The position numbers and the translations under genes are program-made. Source: an uncultured Negativicutes bacterium (lineage in GTDB: Bacteria; Bacillota; Negativicutes; JBAXTZ01). From it: a DNA stretch of 64,000 nucleotides. The notes under the pieces were generated by a model. The model was not told the origin of the DNA, searched no databases, and worked only from the letters and a program-made list of their open reading frames with translations. Positions 31,347 through 64,000 of the stretch are shown piece after piece (the stretch's first letter is position 1; each line of letters begins with the position of its first letter). Where the stretch lies: contig CAVRJL010000015.1 in the NCBI GenBank assembly GCA_963721525.1, forward strand, positions 32,001 through 96,000, in the 5' to 3' direction.

Positions 31347-32188
31347 TAAATTTGTTTTTCTAAATTTTTTTCTACCCCTTTTATAATCCAATCTGGAGTC
31401 GATGCTCCAGCTGTTATTCCTACTATATTTTTATTTTTAAACCATTCGATTTTTAATTCGTCAGGTTGTTCAATATGGTAAACTATACAAGAAAATTGTT
31501 TGCATAATTGAGCTAGATGTTTTGTATTAGCACTATGCTTTCCACCTATTACTAACATTATATCACTTTGTTTTGCAACTTCCACTGCTGCTGCCTGACG
31601 TCTTATTGTTGCTAAACAAGTTGTTCTTTTTACTTTTATGTTTTTACATCTTTTTTTAAACTCAGTTATTATCGCATTAAATTGCTCACCTATAAAAGTG
31701 GTTTGCGCTACAATACCCACGCAATCTAATGTTGGTAGGTTATTTACTTCATCTACATCTCCTATTACATAATAATTCCTTCCAGACCACTCCATAATGC
31801 TTTTTACCTCCGGATGGTTTTTATCTCCGACTATTATAACATGTTTAACCTCCATAGCCGATTTATAAGCTTCATTTTGTACTTTTTTAACATCAGGGCA
31901 AGTGGCATCTACTATTTTAAAATTTTTCTTTCTTCCTATTTCATAAATTTTAGGGCCCACTCCATGAGAACTTATTACAATTGTTCCTTCATTTTTTTCT
32001 TCTAAAGAATTACATACTATTATATTATGTTCTTCCAGCCATCTAACAACTTGTTTATTATGAATTAGTTCCCCTAACGTTTCTACGGGTGTATTTTTAT
32101 TGGTAACTGCAGCGGCTTTTATTGCTAGATCAACCGCTCTTTTTACCCCGTAGCAAAACCCCATATGCTGTGCTTTGATAACCTTCAT
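31346..32188 (-). CDS. ispH: HMBPP reductase
   Basis: GFCYGVKRA, IHN, SHG, DATCP, HPEV, QTT, SANT, TAGASTP. Confidence 0.97.
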   Translation of the reverse strand: MKVIKAQHMGFCYGVKRAVDLAIKAAAVTNKNTPVETLGELIHNKQVVRWLEEHNIIVCNSLEEKNEGTIVISSHGVGPKIYEIGRKKNFKIVDATCPDVKKVQNEAYKSAMEVKHVIIVGDKNHPEVKSIMEWSGRNYYVIGDVDEVNNLPTLDCVGIVAQTTFIGEQFNAIITEFKKRCKNIKVKRTTCLATIRRQAAAVEVAKQSDIMLVIGGKHSANTKHLAQLCKQFSCIVYHIEQPDELKIEWFKNKNIVGITAGASTPDWIIKGVEKNLEKQI

Positions 32189-44740: not shown

Positions 44741-46195
44741 TTAGATTATTGGCATAAGTTTATCTATTCCTATATGAATTCTACGCAAAGATTCTCTTTT
44801 ACCTAATAACTCAGCCAATTCAGCTGCTCCACCTGGGGAAGATGCCATACCTGACAAAGCTATTCTTACAGGACATAAGATCTGACTATTTTTAAAAGCT
44901 AATTTATTTACAATTTTATGTAGTAAATTATTGATTTCCTCATAATTCCATTTTTCAAGAGTTTCTAATACAATCAATACTTCCCGTAAAGCGATTAATG
45001 AACTATTGAAGTCTATTTTCATCTTCTTGTTTTCATATAAATCACGACTATACTCATTTAATATAGATAAATTAGATATTTTGGCAGGTATATCTTCTAA
45101 TACTTCTATTCTTGTTTGCAATAATTTACTTAATACTTTTAAATTTATATTACTACTTAATTTACTTTTTTCGTAATATGGAGTCGCTAATTTAGAAAAT
45201 TCCTCAATATCAAGATTTTTAATATATTTGCTATTCATCCAACGTAATTTTGCCTCATCGAAAATAGCAGGCGATTTGTTTAATCCTTTAATATCAAAAA
45301 TTGTTTTTAGTTCTTCAAGTGTAAAAAATTCTCTTTCATTTTTAGGATTCCAACCTAATAATACGATATAATTCACTATTGCTTCCTTTAAAAATCCACG
45401 TTTCAGTAAATCCTCGAACGATACATCTCCTTCTCTTTTACTTAATTTTTTAGAATAGGACTTTAAGATAGGCGGAAGATGAATATATTTAGGAATTTCC
45501 CACCCAAAAGATTTATAAATTAAATTATATTTTGGTGTTGAAGTTAAATATTCAGCACCGCGAATAACATGTGTTATTTTCATTAAATAATCATCTATAA
45601 CATTTGCAAAATTATAAGTAGGCATTCCATTACTTTTAAGTAGAATTCCTTCTTCTAGTTCTGAATAATCAACTGTTATTTCTCCATAAATTTGGTCAAT
45701 AAAACTTGCTTTACCTAGCGGAATTATTTGACGAATTACATAGTTTTTATTTTTTGTTAAATATTTTTTAATTTCCGACGAAGCCAAAGTTTTGCAAAAA
45801 CCATCATACTGAAATTTTTTATTGTTTTTCTCAATCTTATTTTTTAAACTTTCTAAACGTATTTTGTCACAAAAACAATAATATGCTCCATTAAGATCGA
45901 CTAATTTTTTAGCGTATTGCTTATATATTTCTTTACGTTCACTTTGAATATACGGTCCAAAGTCACCGTCTTTGTCAGGTCCTTCGTCATAAATCAGTCC
46001 AATAGAATTTAGTGTGTTATGAATAACATCGATAGCGTCTTTTACATAACGACTTTGGTCTGTATCTTCTATTCTAAGAATAAATTTACCCTTGTTTTTT
46101 TTCGCAATTAAATATTCATATATAGCGGTCCTTAAATTTCCTATATGCATATAACCTGTAGGGCTTGGAGCAAATCTTGTCCTAACTTCTTTCAT
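44741..46195 (-). CDS. gltX: Glutamate-tRNA ligase
   Basis: RFAPSPTG.MHIGN, RIEDTD, THVIRG, KLSKR. Confidence 0.96.
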   Translation of the reverse strand: MKEVRTRFAPSPTGYMHIGNLRTAIYEYLIAKKNKGKFILRIEDTDQSRYVKDAIDVIHNTLNSIGLIYDEGPDKDGDFGPYIQSERKEIYKQYAKKLVDLNGAYYCFCDKIRLESLKNKIEKNNKKFQYDGFCKTLASSEIKKYLTKNKNYVIRQIIPLGKASFIDQIYGEITVDYSELEEGILLKSNGMPTYNFANVIDDYLMKITHVIRGAEYLTSTPKYNLIYKSFGWEIPKYIHLPPILKSYSKKLSKREGDVSFEDLLKRGFLKEAIVNYIVLLGWNPKNEREFFTLEELKTIFDIKGLNKSPAIFDEAKLRWMNSKYIKNLDIEEFSKLATPYYEKSKLSSNINLKVLSKLLQTRIEVLEDIPAKISNLSILNEYSRDLYENKKMKIDFNSSLIALREVLIVLETLEKWNYEEINNLLHKIVNKLAFKNSQILCPVRIALSGMASSPGGAAELAELLGKRESLRRIHIGIDKLMPII

Positions 46196-46223
46196 TTTTT
46201 AAACCTCTATTAAAATAACAATA

Positions 46224-48647
46224 TTATTGCCTTAAGTTCGCCTCAAATTTTTTATTTAAAGCAACTAATAAATCTTTTATATTTTCATCAATTTCTTGAT
46301 CTGTTAATGTTCTTTCATTCGATCCATAAACTAAATTAAAAGTTAAACTTTTTTTATCTTCTCTCTTATTATTATATACATCAAATAAATTTGCTGTTTT
46401 AAGTAATTTACCGCTTTTTTTCTTTATAAAACTAAGAATTTGGCCTGCTACAATGCTTTTTTTGAAATATAAGGAAATATCTCTCTCTATTTGTGGAAAT
46501 CTAGGTAAATCTATATACGTTAATTTATTTTTTACTTCTGTAAATAACTTTTCTAATTCAACTTCAAATATATAGACTTTAGAATTCATATCAAAATTTT
46601 TTAAGATCTCAGGATGAACTTCACCTAACAAGCCTATTTTCTTACCATTTACAACTAAACTACAAGATACTCCCGGATGATATAAATTATTTTCTTGAAT
46701 AATAAATTTATAATCATTTACTCGCAATGAATCTAGTATTTGCTCAACAACTCCTTTCACTGAGTAGAAGTCAGCTTCCGCTTTGGTTACGTTCCAAGAA
46801 GGGGGTATAGTTAATCCACATACTGCACCACATAACATAATTTTTTCTATAGGTAAGTCCTGACCAGGAAACTTTTTTGATAAATATATTTTACCTATTT
46901 CATAAATCATTAAATCATTATTTTTACGGGACAAATTATATTTTATATTATTTAATATAGAGTCAGCGAGAGTTGTACGCATTAGCGAAAATTCAGTATT
47001 GATAGGATTAACTATAGGAACAGCCATTGTTAAACCATTTTTTGTTTGCCTTAATTTTTCTAAATTTTGAAAAGAAGAAAAACTAGACGAAATTGTTTCA
47101 TCCATACCTAAACTTGACAATATATTTCGTATTTTGTCGCAAAAGTTATTCAACGGCAATTCTTTACTTGGTATTGTTTTACTTATCGGTATTCTAAAAG
47201 GAATTTTATCAAACCCATAAGCTCTACCTATTTCTTCTGCTAAATCAGCTGTCAACATAATATCGGTACGCCAGGAGGGAATCAAGGCTTGTATTTTTTG
47301 TTTTTTTCTTTGAGTTCTTACACCAAGTTTATTCAAAATTTTTAGCATTTCATTACCAGAAATTTCAGTACCTAATTTATTATTAATTTCATTTTCTGTA
47401 AAATCAATACATTTAGATTTCACAGTATATGGATAATGTTCTATGAGTCCCTCGCATGCGTTTCCAGCTTCAATATTTTGTATCAACTGTGCAGCTCTTT
47501 CAATTGCTAAATTTATTCTAACAATATCTACTCCTTTACTAAATTTTTCTGACGACTCGGTTTTTAAGCCTAATTTTAAAGATGTTCTACGAATATAAGA
47601 GGAATTAAACGCAGCAGCTTCCAAAACAATATTTTTTGTATTTGCATTAACTTCTGTTTCACTGCTTCCCGTTATTCCTGCAATGCTTATAATTTTTTCG
47701 CTATCAGTAGTAACTATTGTATCTGTTTCAAGGATTTTCTTTATATTGTCAATTGTTACTATAAATTCGTTTTTTTCAGCTGTCCTTACAATTATTTCAT
47801 TTCCACATATCTTATCTAAATCATATGCGTGTATAGGTTGACCTAATTCAAGCGTAATATAATTTACAATATCGATAATATTATTTATAGGAATAATTCC
47901 TACTGATTGTAGCATTTTTTTTATCGATTGTGGAGATTCTTTTATTTTAACGTTTTTTATTACTTTGCCAATAAAACGTGTAACTAATTCATCATTTTTT
48001 ACCTTAACTTTTATAAATTCTTGTGTTTTTTCTTTAAGTTTATTTACACATAAATAAGATGGTTCAATAAGGTCAATATCGTACGCCATAGCGGCTTCTC
48101 TTGCTAACCCTAACACTGAAAAACAATCTGGTCTATTAGGCGCTACTTCAAAGTCAATAACACTATCATCCTCTATTTCTAAAGCCTGAGCTATAGGAAC
48201 ACCTATTTTTGTTTCATCTGGTAATACAAATATATCCTTACAGTTTTTAGGTGGTAAAAATTTATCCTCTATAGCTAATTCTTGAATAGAACATAGCATA
48301 CCAAAAGATTGTATTCCTCTAAACGTTGTTTTTTTTATTTTTCCCCTATTTGGTAATTTTGCTCCACTCAACGCAACTGGGACAATACTATTAATAGTAA
48401 TATTATCAGCGCCTGTTGTTATTTGTAATATTTTCCCCCCAATATCTATCTGGCAAATAAAAAATTTATTTGCATTTGGATGTTTATTTATTTCTACAAT
48501 TTTCCCAGTTATTATTTTTTTAAAATCTTTTGCACAATAATCTACATGAGCAACTTCAAAACCAACCATAGTCATTTTATAAACAAATTCATCAATCGAA
48601 CAACTTATTCTAGCATAATTTTTTATCCACTTAACTAAAATCTTCAC
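46224..48647 (-). CDS. pheT: Phenylalanine-tRNA ligase beta subunit
   Basis: HPNA, SFGMLCS, PNRPD, DLAEEIGR, GEVHP, RFPQIERD. Confidence 0.96.
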   Translation of the reverse strand: MKILVKWIKNYARISCSIDEFVYKMTMVGFEVAHVDYCAKDFKKIITGKIVEINKHPNANKFFICQIDIGGKILQITTGADNITINSIVPVALSGAKLPNRGKIKKTTFRGIQSFGMLCSIQELAIEDKFLPPKNCKDIFVLPDETKIGVPIAQALEIEDDSVIDFEVAPNRPDCFSVLGLAREAAMAYDIDLIEPSYLCVNKLKEKTQEFIKVKVKNDELVTRFIGKVIKNVKIKESPQSIKKMLQSVGIIPINNIIDIVNYITLELGQPIHAYDLDKICGNEIIVRTAEKNEFIVTIDNIKKILETDTIVTTDSEKIISIAGITGSSETEVNANTKNIVLEAAAFNSSYIRRTSLKLGLKTESSEKFSKGVDIVRINLAIERAAQLIQNIEAGNACEGLIEHYPYTVKSKCIDFTENEINNKLGTEISGNEMLKILNKLGVRTQRKKQKIQALIPSWRTDIMLTADLAEEIGRAYGFDKIPFRIPISKTIPSKELPLNNFCDKIRNILSSLGMDETISSSFSSFQNLEKLRQTKNGLTMAVPIVNPINTEFSLMRTTLADSILNNIKYNLSRKNNDLMIYEIGKIYLSKKFPGQDLPIEKIMLCGAVCGLTIPPSWNVTKAEADFYSVKGVVEQILDSLRVNDYKFIIQENNLYHPGVSCSLVVNGKKIGLLGEVHPEILKNFDMNSKVYIFEVELEKLFTEVKNKLTYIDLPRFPQIERDISLYFKKSIVAGQILSFIKKKSGKLLKTANLFDVYNNKREDKKSLTFNLVYGSNERTLTDQEIDENIKDLLVALNKKFEANLRQ

Positions 48648-48661
48648 AATTTACTCCTGCA

Positions 48662-49681
48662 CTAAAATTGTCGAATAAAGCGAATATCGTTATCATAAAA
48701 TAATCGCACATCGTTTATTTTATAATATAACATGGCAATACGTTCGACTCCCATACCAAAAGCAAAGCCGCTTACTTTTGCTTCACTATATCCATTTAAT
48801 TTTAATACCTGAGGATGTACCATACCTGCTCCCAAAATTTCTAACCAACCGGTACCTTTACAAATTTTACAACCTAACCCCGTGCATAGAACGCAGGATA
48901 TATCTATTTCAAGGCTTGGCTCAGTAAAGGGGAAATAACTTGGTCTAAGTCGAATATTAATATTATCATCAAAAAACTCTTTCAAAAACAGCATTAAAGT
49001 ACCTTTTAGATTAGCTAAACTTATATTTTTATCTATAAAAAGACCTTCTACTTGATGAAATACAGGCGAATGAGTAACATCATTATCACAGCGGTAAACT
49101 TTGCCATAAGTTATAATTTTTATCGGTTCGTTATTTTTGTTTGATTGCATAACTCGCGATTGTACCGGCGAAGTATGTGTCCGTAAAACTATATTATCAT
49201 TAATATAAAATGTATCCTGCATATCTCTAGCAGGATGACTTTTAGGTAGATTCATCATTTCAAAATTAAAATAGTCAAGTTCTATTTCAGGTCCATCCGC
49301 TATAGAATATCCCATTTTTATAAAAATATTTTTTATACGGTTAAGGGTTTGAGTAAGAGGATGAATTTTTCCTACGTATCTTTGTCTTCCAGGCAAAGTA
49401 ACATCGATTTTTTCTAATTTTAATTTTTTTTGTATTTCTTTTTTGTCAATTTCACTATTTAATTTCCTAATATATAGTTCTAACTCTTTCCTTAAATTAT
49501 TAAGCATCTTTCCAAACTCAGGCCTCTTATTTATATGTATTGTACCTATAGCCTGTAAAAGAGACGTTACTTGTCCTTTTTTCCCTAAATATTTAATTTT
49601 AAAAATATTAAGCTCATTTTTTGTTTCAATTTTTTTTAATTCTTCAAACGCTTGTTTCCAAATAAATTTTATTTTATCCAT
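48662..49681 (-). CDS. pheS: Phenylalanine-tRNA ligase alpha subunit
   Basis: HPARDMQDTF, LRTHTS, FHQVEG, YFPFTEPS, GFAFGMGVER. Confidence 0.97.
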   Translation of the reverse strand: MDKIKFIWKQAFEELKKIETKNELNIFKIKYLGKKGQVTSLLQAIGTIHINKRPEFGKMLNNLRKELELYIRKLNSEIDKKEIQKKLKLEKIDVTLPGRQRYVGKIHPLTQTLNRIKNIFIKMGYSIADGPEIELDYFNFEMMNLPKSHPARDMQDTFYINDNIVLRTHTSPVQSRVMQSNKNNEPIKIITYGKVYRCDNDVTHSPVFHQVEGLFIDKNISLANLKGTLMLFLKEFFDDNINIRLRPSYFPFTEPSLEIDISCVLCTGLGCKICKGTGWLEILGAGMVHPQVLKLNGYSEAKVSGFAFGMGVERIAMLYYKINDVRLFYDNDIRFIRQF

Positions 49682-49694
49682 AAATAAATCCTCT

Positions 49695-49755
49695 AAAAAT
49701 AAACGACTTTTGCCTCGAGGGGCAAAAGTCGTTCTTACACGCTGCTACCCTTTCT
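49695..49755 (-). promoter_or_regulatory. Degenerate T-box motif plus intact terminator upstream of pheS
   Basis: AAAGGGTAGCAGCGTG resembles AGGGTGGNACCGCG; followed by 13-bp perfect stem (49702-49714/49721-49733) and TATTTTT just before the AGAGGA RBS. Confidence 0.6.
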
Positions 49756-49829
49756 ATATTAATAGATTTTCCCATTTCTCTCATTTTTTCATAATAAAAC
49801 CGTTTTATTATGTTGTTAGTAAAGCATTC

Positions 49830-50100
49830 TTTCTATAAGTAAATTAAACAAAAAATTTTTTAACGTCGCTTGAATTTATCAACGGTACTGTTATTCTTAT
49901 TTGTAGTATCTTTTATTTCATTTAATTCGTTTACGATTTTTATACTAGCGTCAGCTATTTTGATTTCTTTTCATAAAAAAATATTTTTTAAACATTCACA
50001 AAAACTCTATATCCCTCAATTTTAGTTAGTGTAATTATAAGTTTTATTTTTTTTTATAGTTAAACATACTTCTTATTAAGTTCACTATTAATTGAGTCTT
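49830..50100 (-). pseudogene. Possible TrmH-family RNA methyltransferase relic
   Basis: Short fragments IEGYRV and IRITVPL resemble this family, which commonly precedes pheS; weak. Confidence 0.3.
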
Positions 50101-50141
50101 AAGTATAAATCTTTAAAACTGCCTATTAATTCTAATATATT

Positions 50142-51017
50142 TTAAATATTATTTATGTTAGCAGCAAGCTCATTTAGTCTTTTAACTCTTTCTTCAATAC
50201 TGGGGTGCGTAGAAAATAAAGAGGTAAAAATTTGTTTTGAACCTTTTAACGGATTTACAATAAACAAATGCGCTGTAGTTGCTGTAGCTTCCTGCGACAA
50301 CGTTCCAAATTGCGCTCTATTTTCAAGTTTTAACAGGGCGCTTGCTAAAGAAAGGGGTTTGCCTGATATTTTTGCTCCACTTTCGTCAGCGTCAAATTCG
50401 CGTAAACGAGATACAGCAAGTTGTACTAAAGTAGCTGCTATAGGAGCTAAAACAATCATAAATAACATTTGAATTAAACCGCCACCTTCGTTTGAATCGG
50501 AATCTCTTCTATCTCCACCAAATATCATCGTCCATTTGACCATATTTGCTATCAATAATATTACCCCGGCAATTGATGATACTATAGTATTCACCAATAT
50601 ATCTCTATTTTTTACATGAGCCAGTTCATGAGCTAACACACCTTCCAACTCGTCTCGATTTAAGATGTCCATAATGCCTGTTGTTACCGCAATAGCTGCA
50701 TTTTGCGAATTTCTGCCTGTAGCAAAAGCATTTGGAGTAGTCGTGTCTATCATGCAAATTTTAGGTACGGGCATACCCTGACTTTTTACTAACTTCCTCA
50801 CTATAGAATATAATATTGGTGCGTGCTGTTCGCTTACTGGTTTTGCTCCATACATTAACAGAACAATTCTATCACTAAACCAATAACTTATAAAATTAAA
50901 ACCTAAGGAAAAAACAAGCATCAAAAACATACCGTTGTTTCCGCCGAACTGTCGCCCCATTATCCCTAATATACCTGTCAATAAAGTTAACAGCACAGTC
51001 AACTTTAAACTTTTCAT
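50142..51017 (-). CDS. htpX: Zinc metalloprotease HtpX
   Basis: PNAFATGR, HELAH, SRLREFDAD, FSTHP. Confidence 0.95.
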   Translation of the reverse strand: MKSLKLTVLLTLLTGILGIMGRQFGGNNGMFLMLVFSLGFNFISYWFSDRIVLLMYGAKPVSEQHAPILYSIVRKLVKSQGMPVPKICMIDTTTPNAFATGRNSQNAAIAVTTGIMDILNRDELEGVLAHELAHVKNRDILVNTIVSSIAGVILLIANMVKWTMIFGGDRRDSDSNEGGGLIQMLFMIVLAPIAATLVQLAVSRLREFDADESGAKISGKPLSLASALLKLENRAQFGTLSQEATATTAHLFIVNPLKGSKQIFTSLFSTHPSIEERVKRLNELAANINNI

Positions 51018-51062
51018 AATAACCACCTCATCTTGAATTATACTACATAGTATTCCTTATTT

Positions 51063-51890
51063 CTATATATTCACTCTCTTAAAAATCATTTTTGCATTTA
51101 TTAAAGAATTCTGCGATTCTATCCAATTAATATATGGCATTTTCTTAAACCACGTGTTTTGTCTTTTTGCATATTGTCGAGTTTTTACTTTTATTTGTTC
51201 GATAACTTGACTTTTACTTATGTATCCTTGTAAATATTTTATTATTTCTTTATAACCTATCGCTTGCATTGATTGCATTTGCGGTAAAATACCTTTTTTT
51301 AAAAGATTTTTAGTTTCTTCAACCAATCCGTTATTTATCATTTTGTCTATTCTTTGAATAATTTTATTTACCAATATATCGCGCTCCATAAATAAGCCAA
51401 ATACTTGGGCATCATATTCTAACTCGATTTTTTCATCAATATTAATAGCAAACTTATCTAATTTATTTCTTAAGCCTTCAATCCCTGGGTTTTCAAAAGT
51501 ATTATTTAAATTCAAACATATTTGTTTATTTGTCTTATTTTTTTTAAATCGATAATTTTTTTCCAATAATGCTCTTATATATAAGCCTGTTCCCCCTGAA
51601 ATTATAATTATTTTCCCTGATTTCTCTAATTTATCTATAAGTTCGCGCGCTTCTTTTTGATATTTAGCAACATTATATGTTTCATATGGTTGTTTTATAT
51701 CTATAAAGTGATGAGGGATACCTTTCCTCTCTCTTAAATTAGGTTTAGCCGTTCCTACATTCATATTTTTATAAATCAACATTGAATCAGCGGATATAAT
51801 TTCGCAATTGCCAAGCAACTTAGCAAGGCAAACCGCAGTTTCAGTCTTTCCTGTAGCTGTAGCGCCGACTACTGCTATTATTTTTTTCAT
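51063..51890 (-). CDS. miaA: tRNA dimethylallyltransferase (shortened)
   Basis: GATATGKT, SADSM, GTAKP, GGTGLY, AIGYKE, TRQYAKRQ.TWF. Confidence 0.93.
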   Translation of the reverse strand: MKKIIAVVGATATGKTETAVCLAKLLGNCEIISADSMLIYKNMNVGTAKPNLRERKGIPHHFIDIKQPYETYNVAKYQKEARELIDKLEKSGKIIIISGGTGLYIRALLEKNYRFKKNKTNKQICLNLNNTFENPGIEGLRNKLDKFAINIDEKIELEYDAQVFGLFMERDILVNKIIQRIDKMINNGLVEETKNLLKKGILPQMQSMQAIGYKEIIKYLQGYISKSQVIEQIKVKTRQYAKRQNTWFKKMPYINWIESQNSLINAKMIFKRVNI

Positions 51891-52395
51891 TCGTTTATCA
51901 CTCCGTATTTTACAAGAAATCTTTTTTCTTAAACTATTTTACTAAAAATTTTTATCCCTATCGTAACTACTAATTATTAGTAGCTGATTGTAAAAAACTT
52001 TTAATATTTTATATTTTTTATTCCCTTATTTATACTTAAGCTTTTTATTTTAAATTTTTTAAAAATGAAGCGTATATTTGGTCATAATAAAGTATAATTT
52101 TATATACCTATCTATTTTTCTGGTTTTTATAAAAAAATTCTATTATACCGTCCTATCCAAGTCTGAAACTTATTCTTGGATAATTACATATGAAAACGTT
52201 ATGTACATTGATTTATTACGATAGCACTATTATGTTTTCAAAAACAATGCTCTATAAAATACTAAAAATACACGTATAAAGGCGTAATCATGTTCAATAT
52301 AATCTATACTTGACTTATTACTAATATAAATTAATTTTTATATGATCTTATTATCAACACTTCGATATAATACAATAGTAAAATTCATTTTTATA

Positions 52396-54197
52396 TTAAG
52401 TCCGTTTAAATATTTTATATAACTCATTTAAAGAATATTTTAAAACTATCGGTCTCCCATGAGGGCAAACAAAAAATTTACTTTTTGTTAACATATCATC
52501 TGTTATTTTATACATTTCTAAATTTGTTAATCTATCCCCAGCTCTTACCGAAGCATGACATGCAGCTGTTCGTAAAAATTCTCTTCTTAATTGTCCACTA
52601 TTAATTTTAACATTTGTTTGTATTAAACAAAGTAATTTTAAAAACACTTCTAAAGCAATTTTATTATTCAAATCACTCGGTATTTCCATAATGCGTAAGC
52701 TATCAGGAGAATATAACTCTATGGAATAACCTAATTCAAAAAAATGCAATGTGTTTTCAACAGCTATTTGGCACTCTAAAACAGACAAATTAATAATTTC
52801 TTCAATTAATAATTTTTGAGCTGGTATTCTTTGCTCATCTATATTTAATTTATCGAAAATCACTCTTTCTTGCGCCGCATGCTGGTCGATGATAAATAAC
52901 TCATTATTAATTTGTGCTAATATAAAGCTTTTTGCATATTGTCCTAGTATTTCTATTTCATAGTTATTTCCATTATTTTTTTCTTGTATAAGATTAATAT
53001 TTATATATTCTTTTTTTGAAATTTCTACCCACTGATTTTCTTTTTCAACCTCTAGAACTTCAGTTGTTTGCATTTGCTTAGATATTTCAGAAAGTGAAAT
53101 ATCCGTCTGATTTATATTTTTATACTGAATTGCTTCTTCTCTTACATTACTTGCTGAATTAGGATACTGAATATAGAAAAGATTATTAAATTTATTAGCG
53201 CCTGTATTTAAAGCCGCAGATATTGCTTTAAATATGGCCAAGAAAATTCGTCTTTCATCAGAAAACCTTACCTCGCTTTTTTGCGGGTGAACATTTATAT
53301 CTATCATTTGTGGATCTATATATATATTTATTACTGAAAAAACAAATCCAGTTTTAGGAAGCATAGCTTGATAAGAATTATCAAGTGCTTTATAAAGTAT
53401 ACGGTTATTTACTGATCTGCTATTTACAAAAAAATTTTGCCATTTCCTATTACTACGTACTTGCATAGGATTTCCTACATAACCGTAAATGTTTATTCTG
53501 TCTTCTGTATATTCTACGGGTAATATATTATTGACAGTCTTTTTATCATATAAAGCTGTTATAGCTACTTTTAAATCATTGTTCCCAGGTGTTACTATAA
53601 CTAATTTTTTATTGTGAATATATTTAAAAGAAATATTAGGATAAGAAAGGGCAAGCTTTGTAATAATATCACTAATATAAGAATTTTCCGTAGTGCTTAA
53701 TTTTAAGAATTTTTTTCGCGCCGGTATATTATAAAATAAATCTTTAACAATTATAGTCGTTCCCATCGCACTACCAGTTTCAGATACGTTTTCTATAGTA
53801 CCACCACAACATATACTGGACGTAGCAAACTGAACATCTTTTTGTCTTGTTACTAAAGTAAACTTGGATATTGCAGATATGCTTGATAATGCTTCTCCTC
53901 GAAACCCCATTGAAGATATTTTTGTTAAATCTTTAATATTTGTTATTTTACTTGTAGCATGTTTTTGTAAACATAATTTGGCGTCTGCATTATTCATACC
54001 TATACCATTATCAATAACGCTTATTAATGAAATTCCTCCATTTTCTGCTTCTATTTCGATAATCGTACTTTGAGCATCAATTGAATTTTCGACTAATTCT
54101 TTTACTATAGATGCCGGCCTATCAATAACTTCTCCTGCGGCAATTTTATCAATAGTTTGTTTATCAAGTAACTTTATTGTATTTTTTTTTCTGACAT
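52396..54197 (-). CDS. mutL: MutL moiety; would-be independent ATG at 54197 is out of frame by one base
   Basis: KELVENSIDA, DNGIGM, HATSKI, GFRGEAL, DINVHP, DQHAAQER, ACH, CPHGRP. Confidence 0.9.
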
Positions 54198-56778
54198 TTT
54201 CCTGCTCTTTTTTAGCCTGTTTGTGTAAATTAAATAAAATATTAAGAGCTTCCACAGGCGTAATAGATATTATGTCAAGTTCTGTTAATTGTTTTATTGT
54301 TTCGGACTCAACGAATAACTGATTCCCGTTAACATTAGAATTTATTGATTTTGTACTTTTATAAATACGTAACCCATTTTTTTCTTCAAGTTCTATCAAA
54401 TTTTTCTGAGCACTATTAATAATTTTTCGCGGTAATCCTGCTATAGACGCCACATGTACGCCATAGCTTTTATCTGTTTTTCCTTGTATTATTCGCCTTA
54501 AAAAGACTATATTTTCTCCTTGTTCTTTTACAGCTACAAAATAATTTTTTATCCCATACACAACATCTGCTAATGATGTCAATTCGTGATAATGAGTAGC
54601 AAATAACGTTTTAGCACATATTTTTTCTTTAATATATTCTAATACCGCTTTTGCTATGCTCATTCCATCATAAGTGCTTGTTCCTCTACCTATTTCGTCT
54701 AATATAATCAAACTTTTCGATGTAGAATTTTTTACAATATAGGAAACTTCGTTCATTTCCATCATAAAAGTGCTTTGTCCAGTAGATAAATCATCTCTTG
54801 CTCCAATGCGGGTAAAGATTTTATCTACCATACCTATGGATGATTCATATGCAGGTATAAAACTGCCACAATGAGCCATGAGAGTGAGAATAGCTATCTG
54901 TCTCATATAAGTTGACTTTCCTGCCATATTTGGTCCAGTAATAATAATAACTTCATTTTCATTATTATCCAAATAGCAATCATTAGGCACAAATCTTCCA
55001 TTTAAGCATACACTTTCTATAACAGGGTGTCTTCCATCTTTTATAATTATTTCTTTATCTATCGTTATTTTCGGACGAGTATAATTATATTTGAGCGCCG
55101 CTTCACTCAATGAATATAAACAATCAATTATAGCTATTTGACGGGCTGTTTCCTGTATTAAAACTAAATTTTCTTTTATGAGAGCTCGTATTTGTTCAAA
55201 GATATATAATTCAATTTCACATATTCTTTCAAATGAACTAAGTATTTTTGTCTCAAATTCTTTAAGTTGTTGAGTTATATATCTTTCCGCATTAACAAGA
55301 GTTTGCCTGCGCGTATAATGAGTAGGAACAAAAACCGAATTTGCATGAGTTACTTCTATGTAATAACCAAATATTTTATTGTAACCTATCTTAAGTGATT
55401 TTATACCTGTTATTTCTCGTTCGCTTTTTTCCATTTCTTGTAGCATTTTTTTACTATCTTGAGAAATCATTCTAAATTCATCTAATTGACTATTATAACT
55501 ACCACGAATAAAGCCACCATCTTTTATTGAAATAGGCGGTTGATCGACAATAGCTTTATTTATCAATTTGTAAAGATCCGTATGCGAATTTGCTTTTTCA
55601 GAAAAATTCGCCAATAATTTTGCTCTACTACCTTTAAAAATGTTTTTAAGTTTTGGTATTATTTTTAACGATCGTGAAAGAGCAACTAAATCACGTGCGT
55701 TAGCACTATTTATTTCGATTTTTGTTAATATTCTTTCCAAATCATAAATTTGTGTTAAACACTCATTAATAGCTCGTATTGTATAAGGATCATTTTTTAA
55801 AATTGCTATAACGTCTTGTCTTTCTTTAATCTTTATCGGATTTTGCAAGGGTTGTTCTAACCACTTTTTTAGCAATCTTCCACCCATTGCGGTACAAGTA
55901 AAATCTAAAACGGAAAATAAAGAATTTTTTTTAGTTCCGTCTTTCATATTTTTTATAATTTCTAAATTTCTAAGACTACTGGCGTCAATAGCCAATATAT
56001 TCTCGAAAAAATCTTCCTGCAAAAAATTAATATGTCTTAAATCGCTTTTTTGAGTATATTCCAAATACTTAAGTAACATCCCGCAGGCCAAAGCTGCATT
56101 TTTATCTGTAGGAATTTTATCTTTAAAATGTTTAGCCACAAGCTGAAGAGCTTCGTTATAATCTTCACAATTATATACGCTTGCCAGCGTGTCTGTCATT
56201 TTAGTTTTCATAAATTCTTTTAATTGACTCAATTTATGCATTTCCCCGTTATAAAGTAGCTCTGAAGGTTGAATTTTCAATAAATAGTCTTCTACTTCAT
56301 TTTGTTCTATATGTAATTGTATCCAAGAAAATTCTCCTGTAGAAATATCGCAAGAGCAAATATAAATTTTATTGTTTTTTTCATAAAGTAAACAAATATA
56401 ATTATTACTTTTTTCATTTAATACGCTATCTAATAAAATAGTTCCTGGTGTAACTATTTTTACCACTTGTCTAGATACTATTCCTTTTTCTTGTTTAGGA
56501 TCACTAACCTGTTCGCAAATTGCTACCTTATACCCTTTATTTATCAATTTTTTAATATAATTATCAGCCGCATGATAAGGAACACCACACATAGGCACTC
56601 GCTCATTAGAGCCTGCATCTTTACCTGTCAAAGTTATTTCAAGTTCTTTTGACGCAATATGGGCATCTTGAAAAAACATTTCGTAAAAATCTCCAAGGCG
56701 AAAAAAAACTATTTCTCCAGGATATTTTTCTTTTATTTCTAGAAATTGCCTTATCATAGGAGTAAAAGATGTGCTCAT
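52396..56778 (-). CDS. mutS: MutS-MutL in-frame fusion (MutS about aa 1-860, MutL remainder)
   Basis: MutS: TPMIRQF, GDFYE, GPNMAGKS, STFM, DEIGRGT, SYG. No stop before MutL IAAGEVIDRP. Confidence 0.9.
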   Translation of the reverse strand: MSTSFTPMIRQFLEIKEKYPGEIVFFRLGDFYEMFFQDAHIASKELEITLTGKDAGSNERVPMCGVPYHAADNYIKKLINKGYKVAICEQVSDPKQEKGIVSRQVVKIVTPGTILLDSVLNEKSNNYICLLYEKNNKIYICSCDISTGEFSWIQLHIEQNEVEDYLLKIQPSELLYNGEMHKLSQLKEFMKTKMTDTLASVYNCEDYNEALQLVAKHFKDKIPTDKNAALACGMLLKYLEYTQKSDLRHINFLQEDFFENILAIDASSLRNLEIIKNMKDGTKKNSLFSVLDFTCTAMGGRLLKKWLEQPLQNPIKIKERQDVIAILKNDPYTIRAINECLTQIYDLERILTKIEINSANARDLVALSRSLKIIPKLKNIFKGSRAKLLANFSEKANSHTDLYKLINKAIVDQPPISIKDGGFIRGSYNSQLDEFRMISQDSKKMLQEMEKSEREITGIKSLKIGYNKIFGYYIEVTHANSVFVPTHYTRRQTLVNAERYITQQLKEFETKILSSFERICEIELYIFEQIRALIKENLVLIQETARQIAIIDCLYSLSEAALKYNYTRPKITIDKEIIIKDGRHPVIESVCLNGRFVPNDCYLDNNENEVIIITGPNMAGKSTYMRQIAILTLMAHCGSFIPAYESSIGMVDKIFTRIGARDDLSTGQSTFMMEMNEVSYIVKNSTSKSLIILDEIGRGTSTYDGMSIAKAVLEYIKEKICAKTLFATHYHELTSLADVVYGIKNYFVAVKEQGENIVFLRRIIQGKTDKSYGVHVASIAGLPRKIINSAQKNLIELEEKNGLRIYKSTKSINSNVNGNQLFVESETIKQLTELDIISITPVEALNILFNLHKQAKKEQENVRKKNTIKLLDKQTIDKIAAGEVIDRPASIVKELVENSIDAQSTIIEIEAENGGISLISVIDNGIGMNNADAKLCLQKHATSKITNIKDLTKISSMGFRGEALSSISAISKFTLVTRQKDVQFATSSICCGGTIENVSETGSAMGTTIIVKDLFYNIPARKKFLKLSTTENSYISDIITKLALSYPNISFKYIHNKKLVIVTPGNNDLKVAITALYDKKTVNNILPVEYTEDRINIYGYVGNPMQVRSNRKWQNFFVNSRSVNNRILYKALDNSYQAMLPKTGFVFSVINIYIDPQMIDINVHPQKSEVRFSDERRIFLAIFKAISAALNTGANKFNNLFYIQYPNSASNVREEAIQYKNINQTDISLSEISKQMQTTEVLEVEKENQWVEISKKEYININLIQEKNNGNNYEIEILGQYAKSFILAQINNELFIIDQHAAQERVIFDKLNIDEQRIPAQKLLIEEIINLSVLECQIAVENTLHFFELGYSIELYSPDSLRIMEIPSDLNNKIALEVFLKLLCLIQTNVKINSGQLRREFLRTAACHASVRAGDRLTNLEMYKITDDMLTKSKFFVCPHGRPIVLKYSLNELYKIFKRT

Positions 56779-56846
56779 AATTATCCTTAAATATTATATG
56801 ATGATATCATAATCAAAATTATAAAGAGATTTACTTTTCTACAGCC

Positions 56847-58168
56847 TTAGTATAATATGCTGTTTAATTTACCCCGAAGCAGCCATGTTTGAGCCGAATT
56901 TATAGTAATTTGAGCTATATCTCCTTTTTTTTCGCGTCCGCTGTATTCCCAAAGGACTATTTTATTACCTTTCGTTCTGCCTATCCAAATATTTTTATTT
57001 TTTTTACTTTCTCCTTCAATTAAGACTTCAACAATTTTTCCTGTATAAGTTTTATTGATAGAAAAACTTATACTATTTTGTATACTTATAAGTTTTTTTA
57101 ACCTTCTTTTTTTCTCAAATAAAGGAACTTGCTTTTTCATATTACTTGCAAGTGTTCCACACCTAGGTGAATACATAAATCCATATACTATATCATATTT
57201 TACTGTCCGCAAAATATCTAAAGTATCGTTAAACATTTCGGCAGTTTCACCGGGAAAACCTACTATAATATCTGTACTAATACTATAATCAGGTATTTGA
57301 GCTTTAATTCTTTTTATTAACTCAAGGTAATCTTTACACGTATAACCTCTGTTCATTGACCTAAGTATTTCGTCATTTCCAGCTTGCAATGGTAAATGAA
57401 AATTAGGCATTATCTTATTACTTGTTTTAACCGCTTCTATAATCTCATTATTCATATCTCGCGGGTGAGAAGTTATATACCTGATTCTTTTTAACCCCTC
57501 TATTTTATCAATTTCTTTAAGAAGCTGAACAAATGTGAAGTCTTGATCTAGAGCTTTGCCGTAAGAATTCACATTTTGACCTAAAAGCATAACTTCTCTG
57601 TATCCTGATAGTACTACTTCTTTTACTTCTTCAATTATATCTTGCGCTTTTCTACTTGTTTCGCGACCTCGTACATAAGGTATATACAATATGAACAATA
57701 ATTATCGCATCCATGCATTATAGGTATATAGGCTGTAGTTCCTAATCCCCTAAATATACGCCTATTTGTACTAAACCGCTTAATAGTGTTATTTGTCGCG
57801 TTTACTTTTATCTTGCTATTTCTGAATTTTTTAATATTTTCGGCTAAATACTCAATATTTTGCGTTCCTAAAACAATATCTATATGTGAATATTTTTTAT
57901 AAATTTCATCCGCATTTTTTTGTGCCATACAACCGGCAACTATTATAATTAAATTAGGATTTTTGTTTTTATAATTTTTTAATTCACCTATTTTCCCGAA
58001 TATTTTTTTTTCAGTGCTTTCTCTTATACAACAGGTATTTACCACGAAACAATCAGCTTTATCTATATCCTTCACTTGTCTATATCCTAAATCGTATAAT
58101 TGTCCAGCTATTATTTCAGAATCATTTATATTCATTTGACAACCGTATGTTTGAATATAATATTTCAT
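56847..58168 (-). CDS. miaB: tRNA methylthiotransferase MiaB, -1 frameshift near 57682-57686
   Basis: TYGCQMN, NTCCIRE, GCDNYCSYC then shifted PYVRGRETSR, GQNVNSY, TDIIVGFPGE, TRAM. Confidence 0.92.
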
Positions 58169-59832
58169 TAAATCTCCATAATAATAGGTAATATTACCGG
58201 TTTACGTCTAACTTTTTCATACAAAAATCGACTTAAATTTTCTCTTAAAGAGTTTTTTAAAGTAGCCCAATCAATTACTTTTTTAGATAATTGCTTTTCT
58301 AGGATACATATACAACGTTTTTTAGACTCTCTCATTAATGTATCCGATTCGCGCACATAAACAAACCCACGCGAAATAATATCAGGACCTGATATTATTT
58401 CATAAGATGAAGAATCTATTGTAGCTACTACCATTAAAATACCATCTTGAGATAATTGTTTACGATCGCGCAATACTATATTCCCTACATCACCCACTCC
58501 AAGTCCATCAATTAACATTTTACCTGCCTGAACTTTTCCTTTTGTATTTATTCTATTTTTTTTTAAATCTATAACTGTTCCGTTTTGAGCTATTACGATA
58601 TTTTCTTTAGGTATACCTACCTCATGAGCTAGTTTAGCATGTTTTTTTAAATGTCGTACTTCTCCATGAATAGGAATGAAAAATTTAGGACGAACAAGAT
58701 TTAACATTAACTTGAGTTCTTCTTGGCTTGCATGTCCTGAAACGTGTATCCCTAAATCACTTTCATATATAACCTCTGCACCTTGACTTATTAAAGAATC
58801 AATAGTCTTAGCTACTGATTTTTCGTTTCCGGGTATAGGCGTAGCTGAGACCAAAACAGTATCTGTAGGAAGAATTTCTACTTGCTTATGTCCATTGCTT
58901 GCCATGCGTGAAAGTGCAGACATCGGTTCTCCTTGGCTCCCTGTAGTAATTATAGCAAGTTTAGAACCTACATAATTTTTTATCTCATCCAAATCAATTA
59001 ATATAGTTGGGACAAAGGTTAAATACCCTAATTCAGAAGCAATATTAACCAAATTTACCATACTTCTTCCGCATATTGCTACTTTTCTACCATATTTTAC
59101 TGCACTATCAATTGCTTGCTGTATTCTATGGGTATTGGAAGAAAATGTAGCTATTATGATTCTATCTGTTGCAGAAGCAAACACACGCTCAAAAGTTATT
59201 CCTGTCTACTGCTTTTTTCACTTGGTGTAAATCCTGGCTTTTCAGCTCCCGTACTATCTGAAAGCAAAGCTAAAACGCCTTTCTCCCCAAGAGAGGCCAG
59301 TCGATAAAAATCCGTTACCCGTCCGTCTACAGGCGTTTGGTCTATTTTAAAATCTCCCGTATAAACTATTGCTCCATAAGGAGTATGTATCACAATTGAC
59401 ATGGCATCCGGAATACTATGATTCATATGAATAAATTCTAACCTAAAATTCCCTACATTTATTTTTTGTCTTGCTTCAATATTAACTAAAATATTATTTT
59501 TTATACCAGCTTCTTTTAGTTTATTATTTATTATACCACAAGCCAGTTTGCTGCCAAATATAGGTACATCAGGTATTTCTTTTAATACATATGGTATAGC
59601 ACCAATATGATCTTCATGTGGATGAGTAATCGCAATCCCTTTAACTTTATCTTTGTTTTCAATTAGATATGACATATCAGGGATCACAAAATCTATTCCT
59701 AACATATCATCTTCCGGAAATCTTAACCCAGCATCAACAATAAGCATTTCATACTCTGAAATGAACTATTGTCATATTTTTACCTATTTCTCCTAATCCC
59801 CCTAACGGGATTATTTGTAATTTATCTGTCAA
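58168..59832 (-). CDS. rnj: Ribonuclease J with two frameshifts (about 59750 and 59200-59215)
   Basis: GGAGG RBS, TTG start, IIPLGGLGEIGKNM; THPHEDHIG, HSIPD, GDFK, SDST; GSQGEP, HVSGHA, PIHGE. Confidence 0.92.
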
Positions 59833-59959
59833 AGTACCTCCTTTTATTTGAGTAAAACAAAACTAAGTATCAATTTAATTGATACCTTCCTAAAAAATTT
59901 AACGCTTTAACCAGCCTAACAAAACAACACCTAGACCCCGCACAAAACACTTCCTGTTT

Positions 59960-59988
59960 ATTATAGATTATTTTTAAAAATTATTCAA
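59960..59988 (-). promoter_or_regulatory. Probable sigma-A promoter for rnj-miaB-mutSL
   Basis: TTGAAT-17 nt-TATAAT. Confidence 0.6.
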
Positions 59989-60187
59989 TACTTTTCATTT
60001 GTTTATAAATTTAAGAAGTTTATAACATTTAATGCATAAATTTAGTAAAAACCTTTCTCTCAATTTTTAACTATGTTTTTAAAAAATAAAGTTAATTGAA
60101 AATTACTTGCCCCTAAAATAAAGATATCCTTACTGTAAAATGTAGACGGAAACATTTTTATATAATCGAATATCTTGTATTAACTTC

Positions 60188-61684
60188 TTAATTATTAGAT
60201 TGTTGTATCATAAAATTAATTAAAATACGCGTACCAAATCCTGTTGCTCCAGCATCTATCCAAGATTTCGGCGTTTCTATATTATTAGTACCAGCAATAT
60301 CAATATGCGCCCAGCTAGTATTTCCAACAAAATTTTCTAGAAACTTGGCAGCAGTAATTGTACCTGCACCTAAATCCATAGATATATTTTTTATGTCTGC
60401 TACATGACTTTTTAATGTTTCATTGTAATCTTCATACATAGGAAGTTTCCATAGCCGTTCATTGCATTCATTTCCTACGGCAAATAGTTTATTTGATAGA
60501 TCTTCGTTATTAGACATCAAACCAGCAACATTTTTCCCCAGCGCCGTAATTACCGCTCCAGTTAAAGATGCAATATCAATAATAACGTTTGCTCCTAAAT
60601 CTTTAGCGTAACATAAACCATCTGCAAGTATGATTCTACCTTCCGCATCAGTATTTACTACTTCTATTGTTTTTCCGTTCATTGCAGTTAGTATATCCCC
60701 GACTTTATAGGAATACCCGCCAGGCATATTTTCAACCAACGGCATTATTGCAACAACATTAATATTTAATTTCATTTTTGCTACAGCATTGATTGCTGCA
60801 AGGCAGATTGCTGCTCCTACCATATCCATATGCATTTGTCTCATAAAGTGAGAACCTTTTATACATAATCCACCAGAATCAAATATGACGCCTTTACCCA
60901 CTAATGCAAGTAAATCTGTTTTATTTTTAGGATCTCCTTTATAAATTGCAACAACCATACAAGGATCATGTTTACTTCCTTTTCCTACTGCAAGTATTCC
61001 GCCGGCATTCATTTTTTCTAATCCTTTATTATCAAAAACATCTATATCTAAACCATTTTTTATAGACTCTTTTTGAGCTATTTCAACAAACCTTTGAATA
61101 TCTAAATAATTTGCTGGCATATTAGTAAGATTTCGTGCAAATGATAAAGCTTTTGCCTCGATGCAATATTTTTGGATTATATTATCGATACTCTTATTAT
61201 TTTTGTCACTATCTAAAATAATAAGCAACTTTTGAACCTTATTTTCTTTTTCAGTTTTAAATTGTTGATAAAAATATTGTCCGATATAAGCTCCGCTTAT
61301 TATTGCTTGTAAAAAAAACTCTATAGAATAGTTTTTTTGGCATTCTTTATTTATTAAAATTGCAACTGTTTTTGCTCTATTTTTAACTGCATAACGCAAT
61401 GCAGTTGACGTGGCTTTTTGTAATTTATAATTAGTAAATTCGTTGAATTTGCCAAGCCCAACAAATAAAATTTTTACAGCTTTTATCTTATCAAAAGTAA
61501 ATATTTCCGTTGTTTTACCTAATTCGCCAATTTGTGTATTTTTATAAATAAAAATTTTTATATTGTTCCAAAAATCATCCGTTAGTCTATCAATTTCATT
61601 CAAATATTTATCACTAAATAAATTTACGATTAATATATCGCACTTAATATTAAAAATTTCTTCTTTTGTTAACTCTAATTTCAT
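60188..61684 (-). CDS. pepA: M17 leucyl aminopeptidase
   Basis: VGKGVIFDSGG, NTDAEGR, LTGA, WAHIDIAG. Confidence 0.95.
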   Translation of the reverse strand: MKLELTKEEIFNIKCDILIVNLFSDKYLNEIDRLTDDFWNNIKIFIYKNTQIGELGKTTEIFTFDKIKAVKILFVGLGKFNEFTNYKLQKATSTALRYAVKNRAKTVAILINKECQKNYSIEFFLQAIISGAYIGQYFYQQFKTEKENKVQKLLIILDSDKNNKSIDNIIQKYCIEAKALSFARNLTNMPANYLDIQRFVEIAQKESIKNGLDIDVFDNKGLEKMNAGGILAVGKGSKHDPCMVVAIYKGDPKNKTDLLALVGKGVIFDSGGLCIKGSHFMRQMHMDMVGAAICLAAINAVAKMKLNINVVAIMPLVENMPGGYSYKVGDILTAMNGKTIEVVNTDAEGRIILADGLCYAKDLGANVIIDIASLTGAVITALGKNVAGLMSNNEDLSNKLFAVGNECNERLWKLPMYEDYNETLKSHVADIKNISMDLGAGTITAAKFLENFVGNTSWAHIDIAGTNNIETPKSWIDAGATGFGTRILINFMIQQSNN

Positions 61685-62106
61685 AAATTATCCTTTTTAT
61701 AATTCGAAAAAATAACAGTAGCTTTTCCATCAATAGCTTTTATGTTTCCTTCTATAAATACTGACGTGTTTATAACTAGTCTTTTTTTTTCTGAAATTAT
61801 TTCTTCGATTGTTAACCTGAATAAAGCTTCTGCCCCTACTTTAACAGGTTTTAAAAATTTAACTTCTTGCCTTAAATAAATTGTACCTTTTCCTGGGAAT
61901 TTCGTTCCTAATATTCCAGAAAATTGGCTAACAACAAGCATTCCATGGCAAATTGTTTCCTTAAATAAAGTATTTTTAGCAAATTCATCATCAAAATGAA
62001 TAGGATTATAATCTTTTGTTACGGCGCCAAAACCTGAAACAAGGTTTTTACTCATAACACGCTTTTCTTCATAAGTATCGCCAATTTGATACACTTTTTC
62101 CTCCAT
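61681..62106 (-). CDS. MaoC-family (R)-specific enoyl-CoA hydratase
   Basis: DYNPIH, HGML, FPGKGTIYL.Q..KFLKPV. Confidence 0.9.
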   Translation of the reverse strand: MEEKVYQIGDTYEEKRVMSKNLVSGFGAVTKDYNPIHFDDEFAKNTLFKETICHGMLVVSQFSGILGTKFPGKGTIYLRQEVKFLKPVKVGAEALFRLTIEEIISEKKRLVINTSVFIEGNIKAIDGKATVIFSNYKKDNL

Positions 62107-62232
62107 ATATAATAAAAATTTATTAGTAAACATACTTTTCATAAAAATAATCATTGAAATATATTTTAATTTGTCGAGAACAAATTTAAAAAAAATTTAA
62201 ACGTAAACTTTATTAATTAATCGCACTTTGAT

Positions 62233-63588
62233 TTAGACTAAATCTAAAATTCTTTGGATATGATCTATCTCTATTAATTCACATTTTATTTTTCTTTTTA
62301 ATTTTCTTATACTTATTTTAGGTAAAATTATTGTTTTAAATCCTAACATTTCGGCTTCAGTTATTCGTTCAGCAACATTAATTACTCCTCTAACTTCACC
62401 TGTAAGTCCAATTTCTCCAAAAGCTACAACATCGTTTCCTATTATAAAATCTTTGTAACTTGATAATATAGCAAGTGTTACCGCTAAATCTGCCGCTGGC
62501 TCATTAACTTTTATTCCCCCAACAGAGTTTATAAATATGTCTGTCTGTCCAAAATTAATTCCGATCCTTTTTTCCAAAATCGCGAGTAAAATTATCAACC
62601 TGTTATAGTCAAATCCTGCTACTAAACGGCGAGGCATTCCATAGTAGCTTTGAGTGGCCAAAGCCTGAATCTCTACAAGAAGTGGACGGTTCCCTTCTAT
62701 AAAAGGCGTAACAATTGCACCTGCATGAGCATTTATTCTTTCCGATAAAAGTATTGCCGACGGATTTAGTATTTCTTTTAATCCACTTTCTTCCATTGAA
62801 AAAATGCCGCACTCATTGATACTGCCAAAACGATTTTTTATAACTCGTAATAATCTTAAATTATAATTAAACTCCCCTTCAAAATATAATACAACATCTA
62901 CCATATGTTCGAGTAATTTTGGACCTGCTATTTGTCCATCTTTCGTGATATGCCCTATAATAAGAATCGCTATATTTAACTCTTTTGAGATCCTCACTAA
63001 TTTAGCAGTGCATTCTCTGATTTGAGATACGCTTCCAGGTGAACTTGTTATATCAGGATCAAATATGGTTTGAATAGAGTCTATAATCATAAACTGCGGG
63101 CTTAACTGCTGTACTTCTAATAATATTTCCGCAATATTTATAGTTGTATACAAAAACAAACCAGTACCATATTTACCAAACCTATTCACCCGCATTTTAA
63201 TTTGCGAAGCTGATTCCTCTCCTGATACATATAATATTTTCCTTTCATTCAAAGATAAACTCATAGCTACCTGCATAAGCAGAGTAGATTTTCCTACGCC
63301 TGGATCTCCACCTAATAATATTACAGAACCAGGCATAATGCCTCCGCCAAGGACTTTGTCAAATTCTTTATTACCTGTATCTAACCTCTCACTGCTATTA
63401 AAAAAAACGCTCCTTAATAGTACAGGTTTATTGTGAGTAGTAGTACTAAATTTATATTTAGTACTTTCGTTATTAATTATTTCTTCTGTAAAACAGTTCC
63501 ACCCATTGCACACTGGACACCTTCCCAACCATTTACCAGCTTGATATCCACATGAATTACAAAAAAACTGAGTTTTTTGTTTAACCAT
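62233..63588 (-). CDS. radA: DNA repair protein RadA/Sms
   Basis: C4 zinc finger, GDPGVGKS, DSIQT, KNRFG, Lon-like C-terminus. Confidence 0.97.
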   Translation of the reverse strand: MVKQKTQFFCNSCGYQAGKWLGRCPVCNGWNCFTEEIINNESTKYKFSTTTHNKPVLLRSVFFNSSERLDTGNKEFDKVLGGGIMPGSVILLGGDPGVGKSTLLMQVAMSLSLNERKILYVSGEESASQIKMRVNRFGKYGTGLFLYTTINIAEILLEVQQLSPQFMIIDSIQTIFDPDITSSPGSVSQIRECTAKLVRISKELNIAILIIGHITKDGQIAGPKLLEHMVDVVLYFEGEFNYNLRLLRVIKNRFGSINECGIFSMEESGLKEILNPSAILLSERINAHAGAIVTPFIEGNRPLLVEIQALATQSYYGMPRRLVAGFDYNRLIILLAILEKRIGINFGQTDIFINSVGGIKVNEPAADLAVTLAILSSYKDFIIGNDVVAFGEIGLTGEVRGVINVAERITEAEMLGFKTIILPKISIRKLKRKIKCELIEIDHIQRILDLV

Positions 63589-63659
63589 TAAAATGAACCT
63601 TCTTAAAATAGTTTATATTTTAAATAAATTTTATTCGCATAAACATAAATTAATTTTAG

Positions 63660-64000
63660 CTATTGCTTCTTTTTTAATAATGCTTTTTGTCAGTAGTTCT
63701 TCAATCTTTCTTGATTTTGAAATATTAATGTAACCTTTATTTGACACGAATTAATTGATCCCTACACTCGTTTCCACTTGTACTTTTATAAATTGATGAA
63801 ACTGTGCCAATTTTCTAACCGTTGTCAATCTGATAATGCTACTTTAGATCTCAGCAATATGTTTTACAAACTCTTTTATTTCCTGAATTTTAAAAATCAT
63901 AGTTGATATAGTTGATGTTGACACAGTTAGTTTCCGTATTATCTACAACTCGTAGATCTTTATCTATTTTTATATCATCGCTAAAACTATAATTTTTATA
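63660..64000 (-). pseudogene. Decayed coding relic, possibly NadC (quinolinate phosphoribosyltransferase)
   Basis: Fragments LRVVDNTET, KHIAE, VRKLAQFHQFIKVQVET are colinear with NadC RIVDTRKT, DNHIA, KIEVEVE; weak. Confidence 0.3.

Follow-up and report, generated by a model that had tools for sequence, protein, structure and literature searches.

The mismatch-repair genes mutS and mutL of firmicutes lie together in an operon, presumably of the Bacillus subtilis type, in which a stop codon separates the two. The locus described here, from an uncultured Negativicutes bacterium, has the same domains, motifs and gene order as this operon (TIGR01070/NF003810 for MutS; TIGR00585 for MutL), yet as assembled it has no stop between the genes: in the window, a 64,000-nt stretch covering positions 32,001 to 96,000 of contig CAVRJL010000015.1 (assembly GCA_963721525.1), MutS runs on into MutL in one open reading frame (ORF) on the minus strand, at 52396-56778. 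We conclude that this read-through is real in the assembly and, with a probability of roughly 0.78, that it results from a one-base consensus undercall, nine A for ten, in a pair of separate and overlapping mutS and mutL genes. This weight, like those behind our wording of the alternatives, is a judgement from counts and not a computed posterior.

Other described systems resemble the locus in part. Consensus indels in low-coverage long-read metagenome-assembled genomes, as treated in PMC9262707 and PMC8021871, share with this assembly frameshifts in essential genes, +1 and -1 errors mixed at short runs, long runs that are one base short, and clustering, the match being one of pattern only. The slippage rescue at polyA tracts of Blochmannia and Buchnera (PMC3017870) also concerns AT-rich, reduced genomes, and runs of A9 to A13 occur at some of the breaks found here; however, the breaks described there lie in polyA/polyT tracts and split a gene, whereas 16 of our 20 lie at short runs and the break at the junction would join two genes. 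A slip-prone repeat within a repair gene is likewise known from the tandem repeat of Salmonella mutL (PMC2955026) and from the MSH6 and MSH3 homopolymers of cancers (PMC11250277), and the length of the run would here likewise determine if MutL is produced; those switches, though, are seen as mixtures of alleles, whereas here there is a single consensus and the run is not conserved in relatives. Finally, the two halves of the ORF match the MutS and MutL chains of the solved complexes PDB 5AKB, 7AIB and 7AIC, in which the chains are separate; among the 49 matched PDB sequences no chain spans both halves.

The original prediction, made from the letters alone, was that a complete MutS and a complete MutL share one 1460-aa ORF, and this is borne out by the Pfam and NCBIfam profiles, by the motifs and by a frame with zero internal stops. 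Along the ORF, Pfam places MutS_I-V at aa 6-798, HATPase at 886-984, DNA_mis_repair at 1073-1190 and MutL_C at 1278-1417. The MutS portion (54199-56778, aa 1 to about 860) is intact, is 58-59% identical to the MutS of the two other genomes of the family (G001 and G002), and belongs to MutS1, with 964.6 bits against TIGR01070 (cut-off 641.7), domains I-V, the FxE mismatch motif and Walker A and B. Its motifs are GDFYE (aa 29), GPNMAGKS (615), LIILDEIGRG (690), QLF (820-822; 54313-54321), which we take to be a putative clamp-binding-like motif, and TPVEALN (840; 54241-54261) of the C-terminal helical domain. The MutL portion (52396-54183, aa 866-1460), 46-47% identical to the MutL of G001 and G002, is of the endonuclease type, with 479.8 bits against TIGR00585 (cut-off 180) and with the GHKL ATPase, transducer and C-terminal domains all present; it carries KELVEN (893), GFRGEAL (958), DQHAAQER (1298), AACH (1405) and CPHGRP (1438), so that the DQHA(X)2E, ACR-like and CPHGRP motifs of MutL_C are all there, and in its metal motif the last acidic residue is D, as in G001 and G002.

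The junction between the halves was also read correctly in the original prediction. A run of nine T on the plus strand, A9 on the coding strand, lies at 54182-54190, and an out-of-frame ATG at 54195-54197, at the position homologous to the mutL start and with the phase seen in G002, encodes only MSEKKIQ* as assembled. The computed frames agree with what had been proposed for a tenth A: MutS would then be 871 aa long, ending at TGA 54166-54164, and MutL 600 aa long from ATG 54197, with a 35-nt overlap. The canonical arrangement, a mutS stop and a mutL start of its own, is thus absent as assembled and would be present with A10. More generally, A9 gives the fused protein, A7 and A10 give two genes, and A8 and A11 give MutS without MutL. 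A weak Shine-Dalgarno-like stretch precedes the ATG at 54200-54207 (pairing with the 16S tail of this genome at -4.4 kcal/mol), a strength equalled or exceeded by 73% of 186 homology-defined starts and by 15% of 2580 ATGs that are internal and out of frame. The halves are joined without any additional linker. The homologous ATG, the Shine-Dalgarno stretch and the missing linker speak against an old fusion and do not discriminate between an assembly error and a real deletion of recent date. That the fusion is old and selected, with the ATG and the A-run there by coincidence, is accordingly very improbable: an out-of-frame ATG with a Shine-Dalgarno stretch at just the homologous start has an estimated chance of about 1-2% before the A-run is counted, and the protein searches returned no full-length fusion family, even though the lineage has no congeneric genome in the comparison set and a fused sister would be invisible to us.

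The relatives keep the genes apart. We examined 19 relative loci, a check that had been recommended together with the prediction, and in all 19, including those of G001 and G002, the mutS stop is present and the genes are separate; a 4-nt ATGA/TTGA overlap is seen in 14, a gap of 0-6 nt in three, and the spacing is 5 nt in G001 and 1 nt in G002, where the stop sits one base ahead of the mutL ATG. Their MutS ends 19-23 codons after the start of the TPxEA motif, a point beyond which the frame stays open here, and none of the 19 loci has a long A-run at the junction. Compared with them, A10 would give the 35-nt overlap and a MutS 9-13 residues longer. The gene order rnj-miaB-mutS-mutL-miaA is common to this genome and to G001 and G002. 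Across the class, mutL was matched in 193 of 201 genomes; of the 194 matches, 150 were listed, and in these no open frame exceeds 781 aa and none is fused. The fused form is a singleton: it was not recovered from any independent genome or assembly, no second copy was found in the protein collection, where it forms a cluster of one, and it lies on one contig.

A search for other architectures that combine MutS and MutL, also suggested at the outset, gave no full-length fusion family, only six further proteins with parts of both among the 386 proteins fetched. Four of these, from public collections, read through in the MutS-MutL order (P0302, P0122, P0244 and P0246) and all are truncated; three of the four lose the MutS C-terminal motif in sequence that looks out of frame, while P0302 joins an intact MutS end cleanly to MutL and is a 520-aa fragment. 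The other two, P0121 and P0375, were rejected as fusions because MutL precedes MutS in them and they look chimeric. The search of 50% cluster representatives did not return the query itself, and fusions can hide inside such clusters. The statement that no natural fusion had been characterised held in the literature searched, a partial library, where no description of one was found.

The evidence that bears most directly on the junction comes from the rest of the assembly. Proteins from about 1.1 Mb of G001 and G002 were compared with it by tblastn, which gave 238 non-overlapping matches spanning 221 kb and including some antisense shadows; a reference-free scan for frame switches, with 459 mostly false candidates, was dropped, and a run-centred version of it was used for rates only. 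This partial census, from which the second tuf copy on contig C16 was left out because it is not single-copy, contains 20 frameshift sites in 16 genes, about one per 11 kb in the part of the assembly tested. Eleven of the 20 fall in eight single-copy genes, namely rplB, rplX, rplE (two sites), rpoC, fusA (three), prfB, rplU and rpmA (C16:69000-73400 and 114400-121500, C3:46250 and C7:12140-12790), and no intact second copy of any of the eight was found in the assembly. The NCBIfam profiles cut L2 and L5 into consecutive pieces and identify the first pieces of beta-prime, elongation factor G (EF-G) and L21; L2, L5, beta-prime and EF-G are indispensable. Eight of the 20 sites fall in 28 kb of genes for ribosomal proteins, RNA polymerase and elongation factors (p = 0.002, for a span picked after the fact), which is the opposite of gene decay, and real pseudogenes were rejected as an explanation of the core-gene breaks. 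The sites are also clustered, 12 of the first 19 having a neighbour at most 1.6 kb away (3.4 on average in shuffles, p = 0.001), and their signs are evenly divided, ten +1 and ten -1. In sixteen of the 20, the zone open in both frames contains runs of 6 bases at most. According to PMC6260861, rescue by E. coli RNA polymerase was undetectable at runs shorter than 7 T or 8 A; since most of the breaks lie at runs too short for slippage rescue, they are likely to be consensus errors, and slippage was rejected as the explanation of the genome's breaks.

Long runs are broken more often than shorter ones. Four breaks lie at runs of 8, 9, 10 and 13 A, each one base short and thus in the same direction as the junction; this shared direction is not significant alone (p = 0.09). 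Runs of 8 or more are broken in 4 of 176 cases and runs of 5-7 in at most 3 of 2668 (p = 0.0004). According to PMC9262707, Nanopore R10.4 data remain prone to error at runs of at least 10 bases and in bins with less than 40-fold coverage, and the higher rate together with the one-base-short direction fits long-read undercalling. A systematic miscall or shift of A9 runs was rejected, 60 of the 61 scored coding-strand A9 runs being in frame.

The original prediction had offered, besides a one-base assembly error, a tethered repair machine and a homopolymer switch. The error is the best supported of the three, through the broken single-copy core genes and the separate genes of the relatives; the other two gained no positive support, as no second copy of the fusion was found and most of the breaks do not lie in long A/T tracts, as those of Buchnera and Blochmannia do. 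Taken together, a natural single-chain MutS-MutL, born of a slip in the A-run at the mutL start, rescued by read-through from mutS and with the run acting as a three-state switch (fused, separate or MutL-null), is in our judgement unlikely, and its two components differ in weight.

The component with the smaller share, which we consider decidedly improbable, holds that A9, or a mixture of A9 and A10, is real and that slippage in transcription or replication yields both fused and separate proteins, making the run a three-state mutator switch. The computed outcomes of A7 to A11 would permit such a switch, and the junction does lie in an A/T run of about nine or more, as slippage rescue would require. 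The literature supplies precedents, with insertions prevailing during transcription of A/T runs in E. coli and Buchnera (PMC5574713) and repeat-based mutL switches in Salmonella (PMC2955026); within the genome, the break in prfB falls at an A10 run, a place open to rescue by slippage. Against this, the other breaks in intact-looking genes are not generally at long runs, those of rplB, rplE, rpoC and fusA being among the 16 at short ones; a long A-run is absent from the junction in all the relative loci; and A-rich starts are ordinary in this genome: of 186 starts, 13 contain at least 7 consecutive A within their first 30 nt, and three contain at least 9.

The larger component is a recent, real one-base deletion fixed in a drift-prone reduced genome, to which we give a low probability, above that of the switch. 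By one route, a slip would have knocked mutL out of frame, the mutS stop would then have been lost, and MutL would have been rescued as part of a constitutive fusion; the product would be a machine tethered 1:1 that has two dimer interfaces. The two halves are undamaged and carry all their motifs, the genome has undergone strong reduction (769 kb, about 30% GC), and the missing family stop is explained without a rare long overlap, the ATG being in the phase of G002, whose stop lies one base ahead. There is some precedent in the yidC-yidD fusion noted for two Blochmannia genomes in PMC3017870, and P0302 has a similar clean junction, although it is only a fragment. The deletion would, however, have left a singleton, with no fusion in the 19 relative loci or the 150 class matches listed, and the only real fused junction among 118 adjacent gene pairs tested, five other matches being artefacts of split references or overlaps; moreover, indels are frequent in the assembly, and every one of its breaks at long runs shares the direction of this deletion.

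Our preference for an undercalled A10 thus rests on the load of frameshifts in core genes, most of them of the short-run error type, on the long-run breaks that are one base short, on the separate genes of the relatives, on the ATG with a weak Shine-Dalgarno stretch at the homologous mutL start, on the lack of a linker and on the truncation of the other read-throughs. Likely, judging by this pattern, the frameshifts of the census are errors that come from a low-coverage long-read consensus, with the junction run among them. Several observations weigh against the undercall: (i) A9 is usually correct in this assembly, which holds 113 A9/T9 runs, as the 60 of 61 in frame indicate, and runs of 9 or more are broken in only 3 of 56 cases in aligned genes. 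This rate resembles that of Blochmannia vafer, for which PMC3017870 counts tract frameshifts in eight genes and 153 polyA tracts at least 9 bp long. (ii) With a uniform error rate, the whole genome should contain about 0.15 accidental fusions, a figure that ignores the higher rate at long runs. (iii) Two separate genes require a MutS without the family stop and an overlap of 35 nt; 3 of 186 starts show an overlap of at least 32 nt, and 24 of 224 genes run on at the C-terminus by at least 8 aa, about eight of these being artefacts or this ORF. (iv) The long-read origin of the assembly is judged by pattern only. (v) No covering read or second assembly was found for the junction, so that the error is inferred.

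As to this last point, run X1 (share 0.05) was the one run listed, with no RNA data set beside it. Among the 8 of 10 matches listed for window 50000-60000 it gave exact pieces of 139 and 189 bp, none across the junction, and among those listed for C16:103000-122776 exact pieces of 151 and 165 bp, none across a break. The exact junction pattern with a variable run length had no match in metagenome contigs, and a protein-based scan returned 16 loci, all distant (best segments 30-53% identity), none of which covers the junction. Run X1 is labelled soil; its few pieces of 139-189 bp identical to this genome stand at depth 2-4, a share too small to name a habitat.

If the run is indeed A10, the two genes would be ordinary members of the conserved rnj-miaB-mutS-mutL-miaA cluster, mutS ending at TGA 54166-54164 and mutL starting at ATG 54197. 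The cell would then have MutH-independent mismatch repair of the Bacillus type, in which a MutS dimer would recognise the mismatch and the DNA would be nicked by a distinct MutL dimer bearing an endonuclease motif of its own.

Two of the neighbouring genes, which are all on the minus strand, are themselves broken. The miaB-like gene (56847-58168) has a frameshift near 57683 without a long run, and the RNase J gene rnj (58168-59826) has two, near 59220 and 59755, with no long run in the open zones; these three breaks lie 3.5-5.6 kb from the mutS-mutL junction. The miaA-like gene (51063-51890) keeps its order with G001 and G002. The claim that the window contains other -1 indels in A-tracts was correct in that other breaks exist and needs qualifying as to their nature: the open zones of those verified, in miaB, rnj and a radical-SAM gene, hold no long A-tract and no run longer than 2-4 bases. 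This last gene, which we take to be radical-SAM-like, is split near 18398 of the window (C15:50398) at a short dinucleotide repeat, not an A-tract. The two tuf copies (C6:3304-4485 and C16:121586-122753) are 96% identical, the former intact and the latter, at a contig end, with several single-base gaps. In prfB (C3:45348-45450), a CTT TGA context, presumably that of the usual programmed frameshift, is kept near the start, and the break at the A10 run near the end is separate from it. Gene names beyond those confirmed by domain and profile scans are our own assignments from the sequences. Along the window, plus-strand G+C skew is negative in every 4-kb bin (1-64000) and the long ORFs of 46000-64000 are mostly on the minus strand, which is consistent with a single replichore.

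The genome itself (769,348 bases in 16 contigs, about 30% GC, rated 81% complete) belongs to a family of three species, the other two of which, with genomes of 2.4 and 3.4 Mb, are placed in another genus; its closest named protein matches are Negativicutes, for example Pelosinus and Sporomusa. It is likely a reduced Negativicutes lineage, probably host-associated, that retains mutS and mutL, and our literature search found no description of such a lineage, which is perhaps more interesting than the fusion. Genes at C6:13885-16060, C6:89074-89982 and C16:46992-49025, which we take to encode a hydrogenase maturation protein, an iron hydrogenase subunit and a membrane pyrophosphatase, suggest a possible anaerobic lifestyle.

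If the junction is an error, split or fused genes from this assembly should not be trusted without reads, and overlapping mutS-mutL pairs would be seen to fuse readily through single indels in public data. If it is true, it would be a natural full-length MutS-MutL fusion, of which we found no description in the literature searched, and a natural test of mismatch repair by MutS and MutL tethered 1:1. It would then bear on the question whether several copies of MutL have to be loaded and have to move free of MutS, and on how reduced genomes might tune their own mutation rates.

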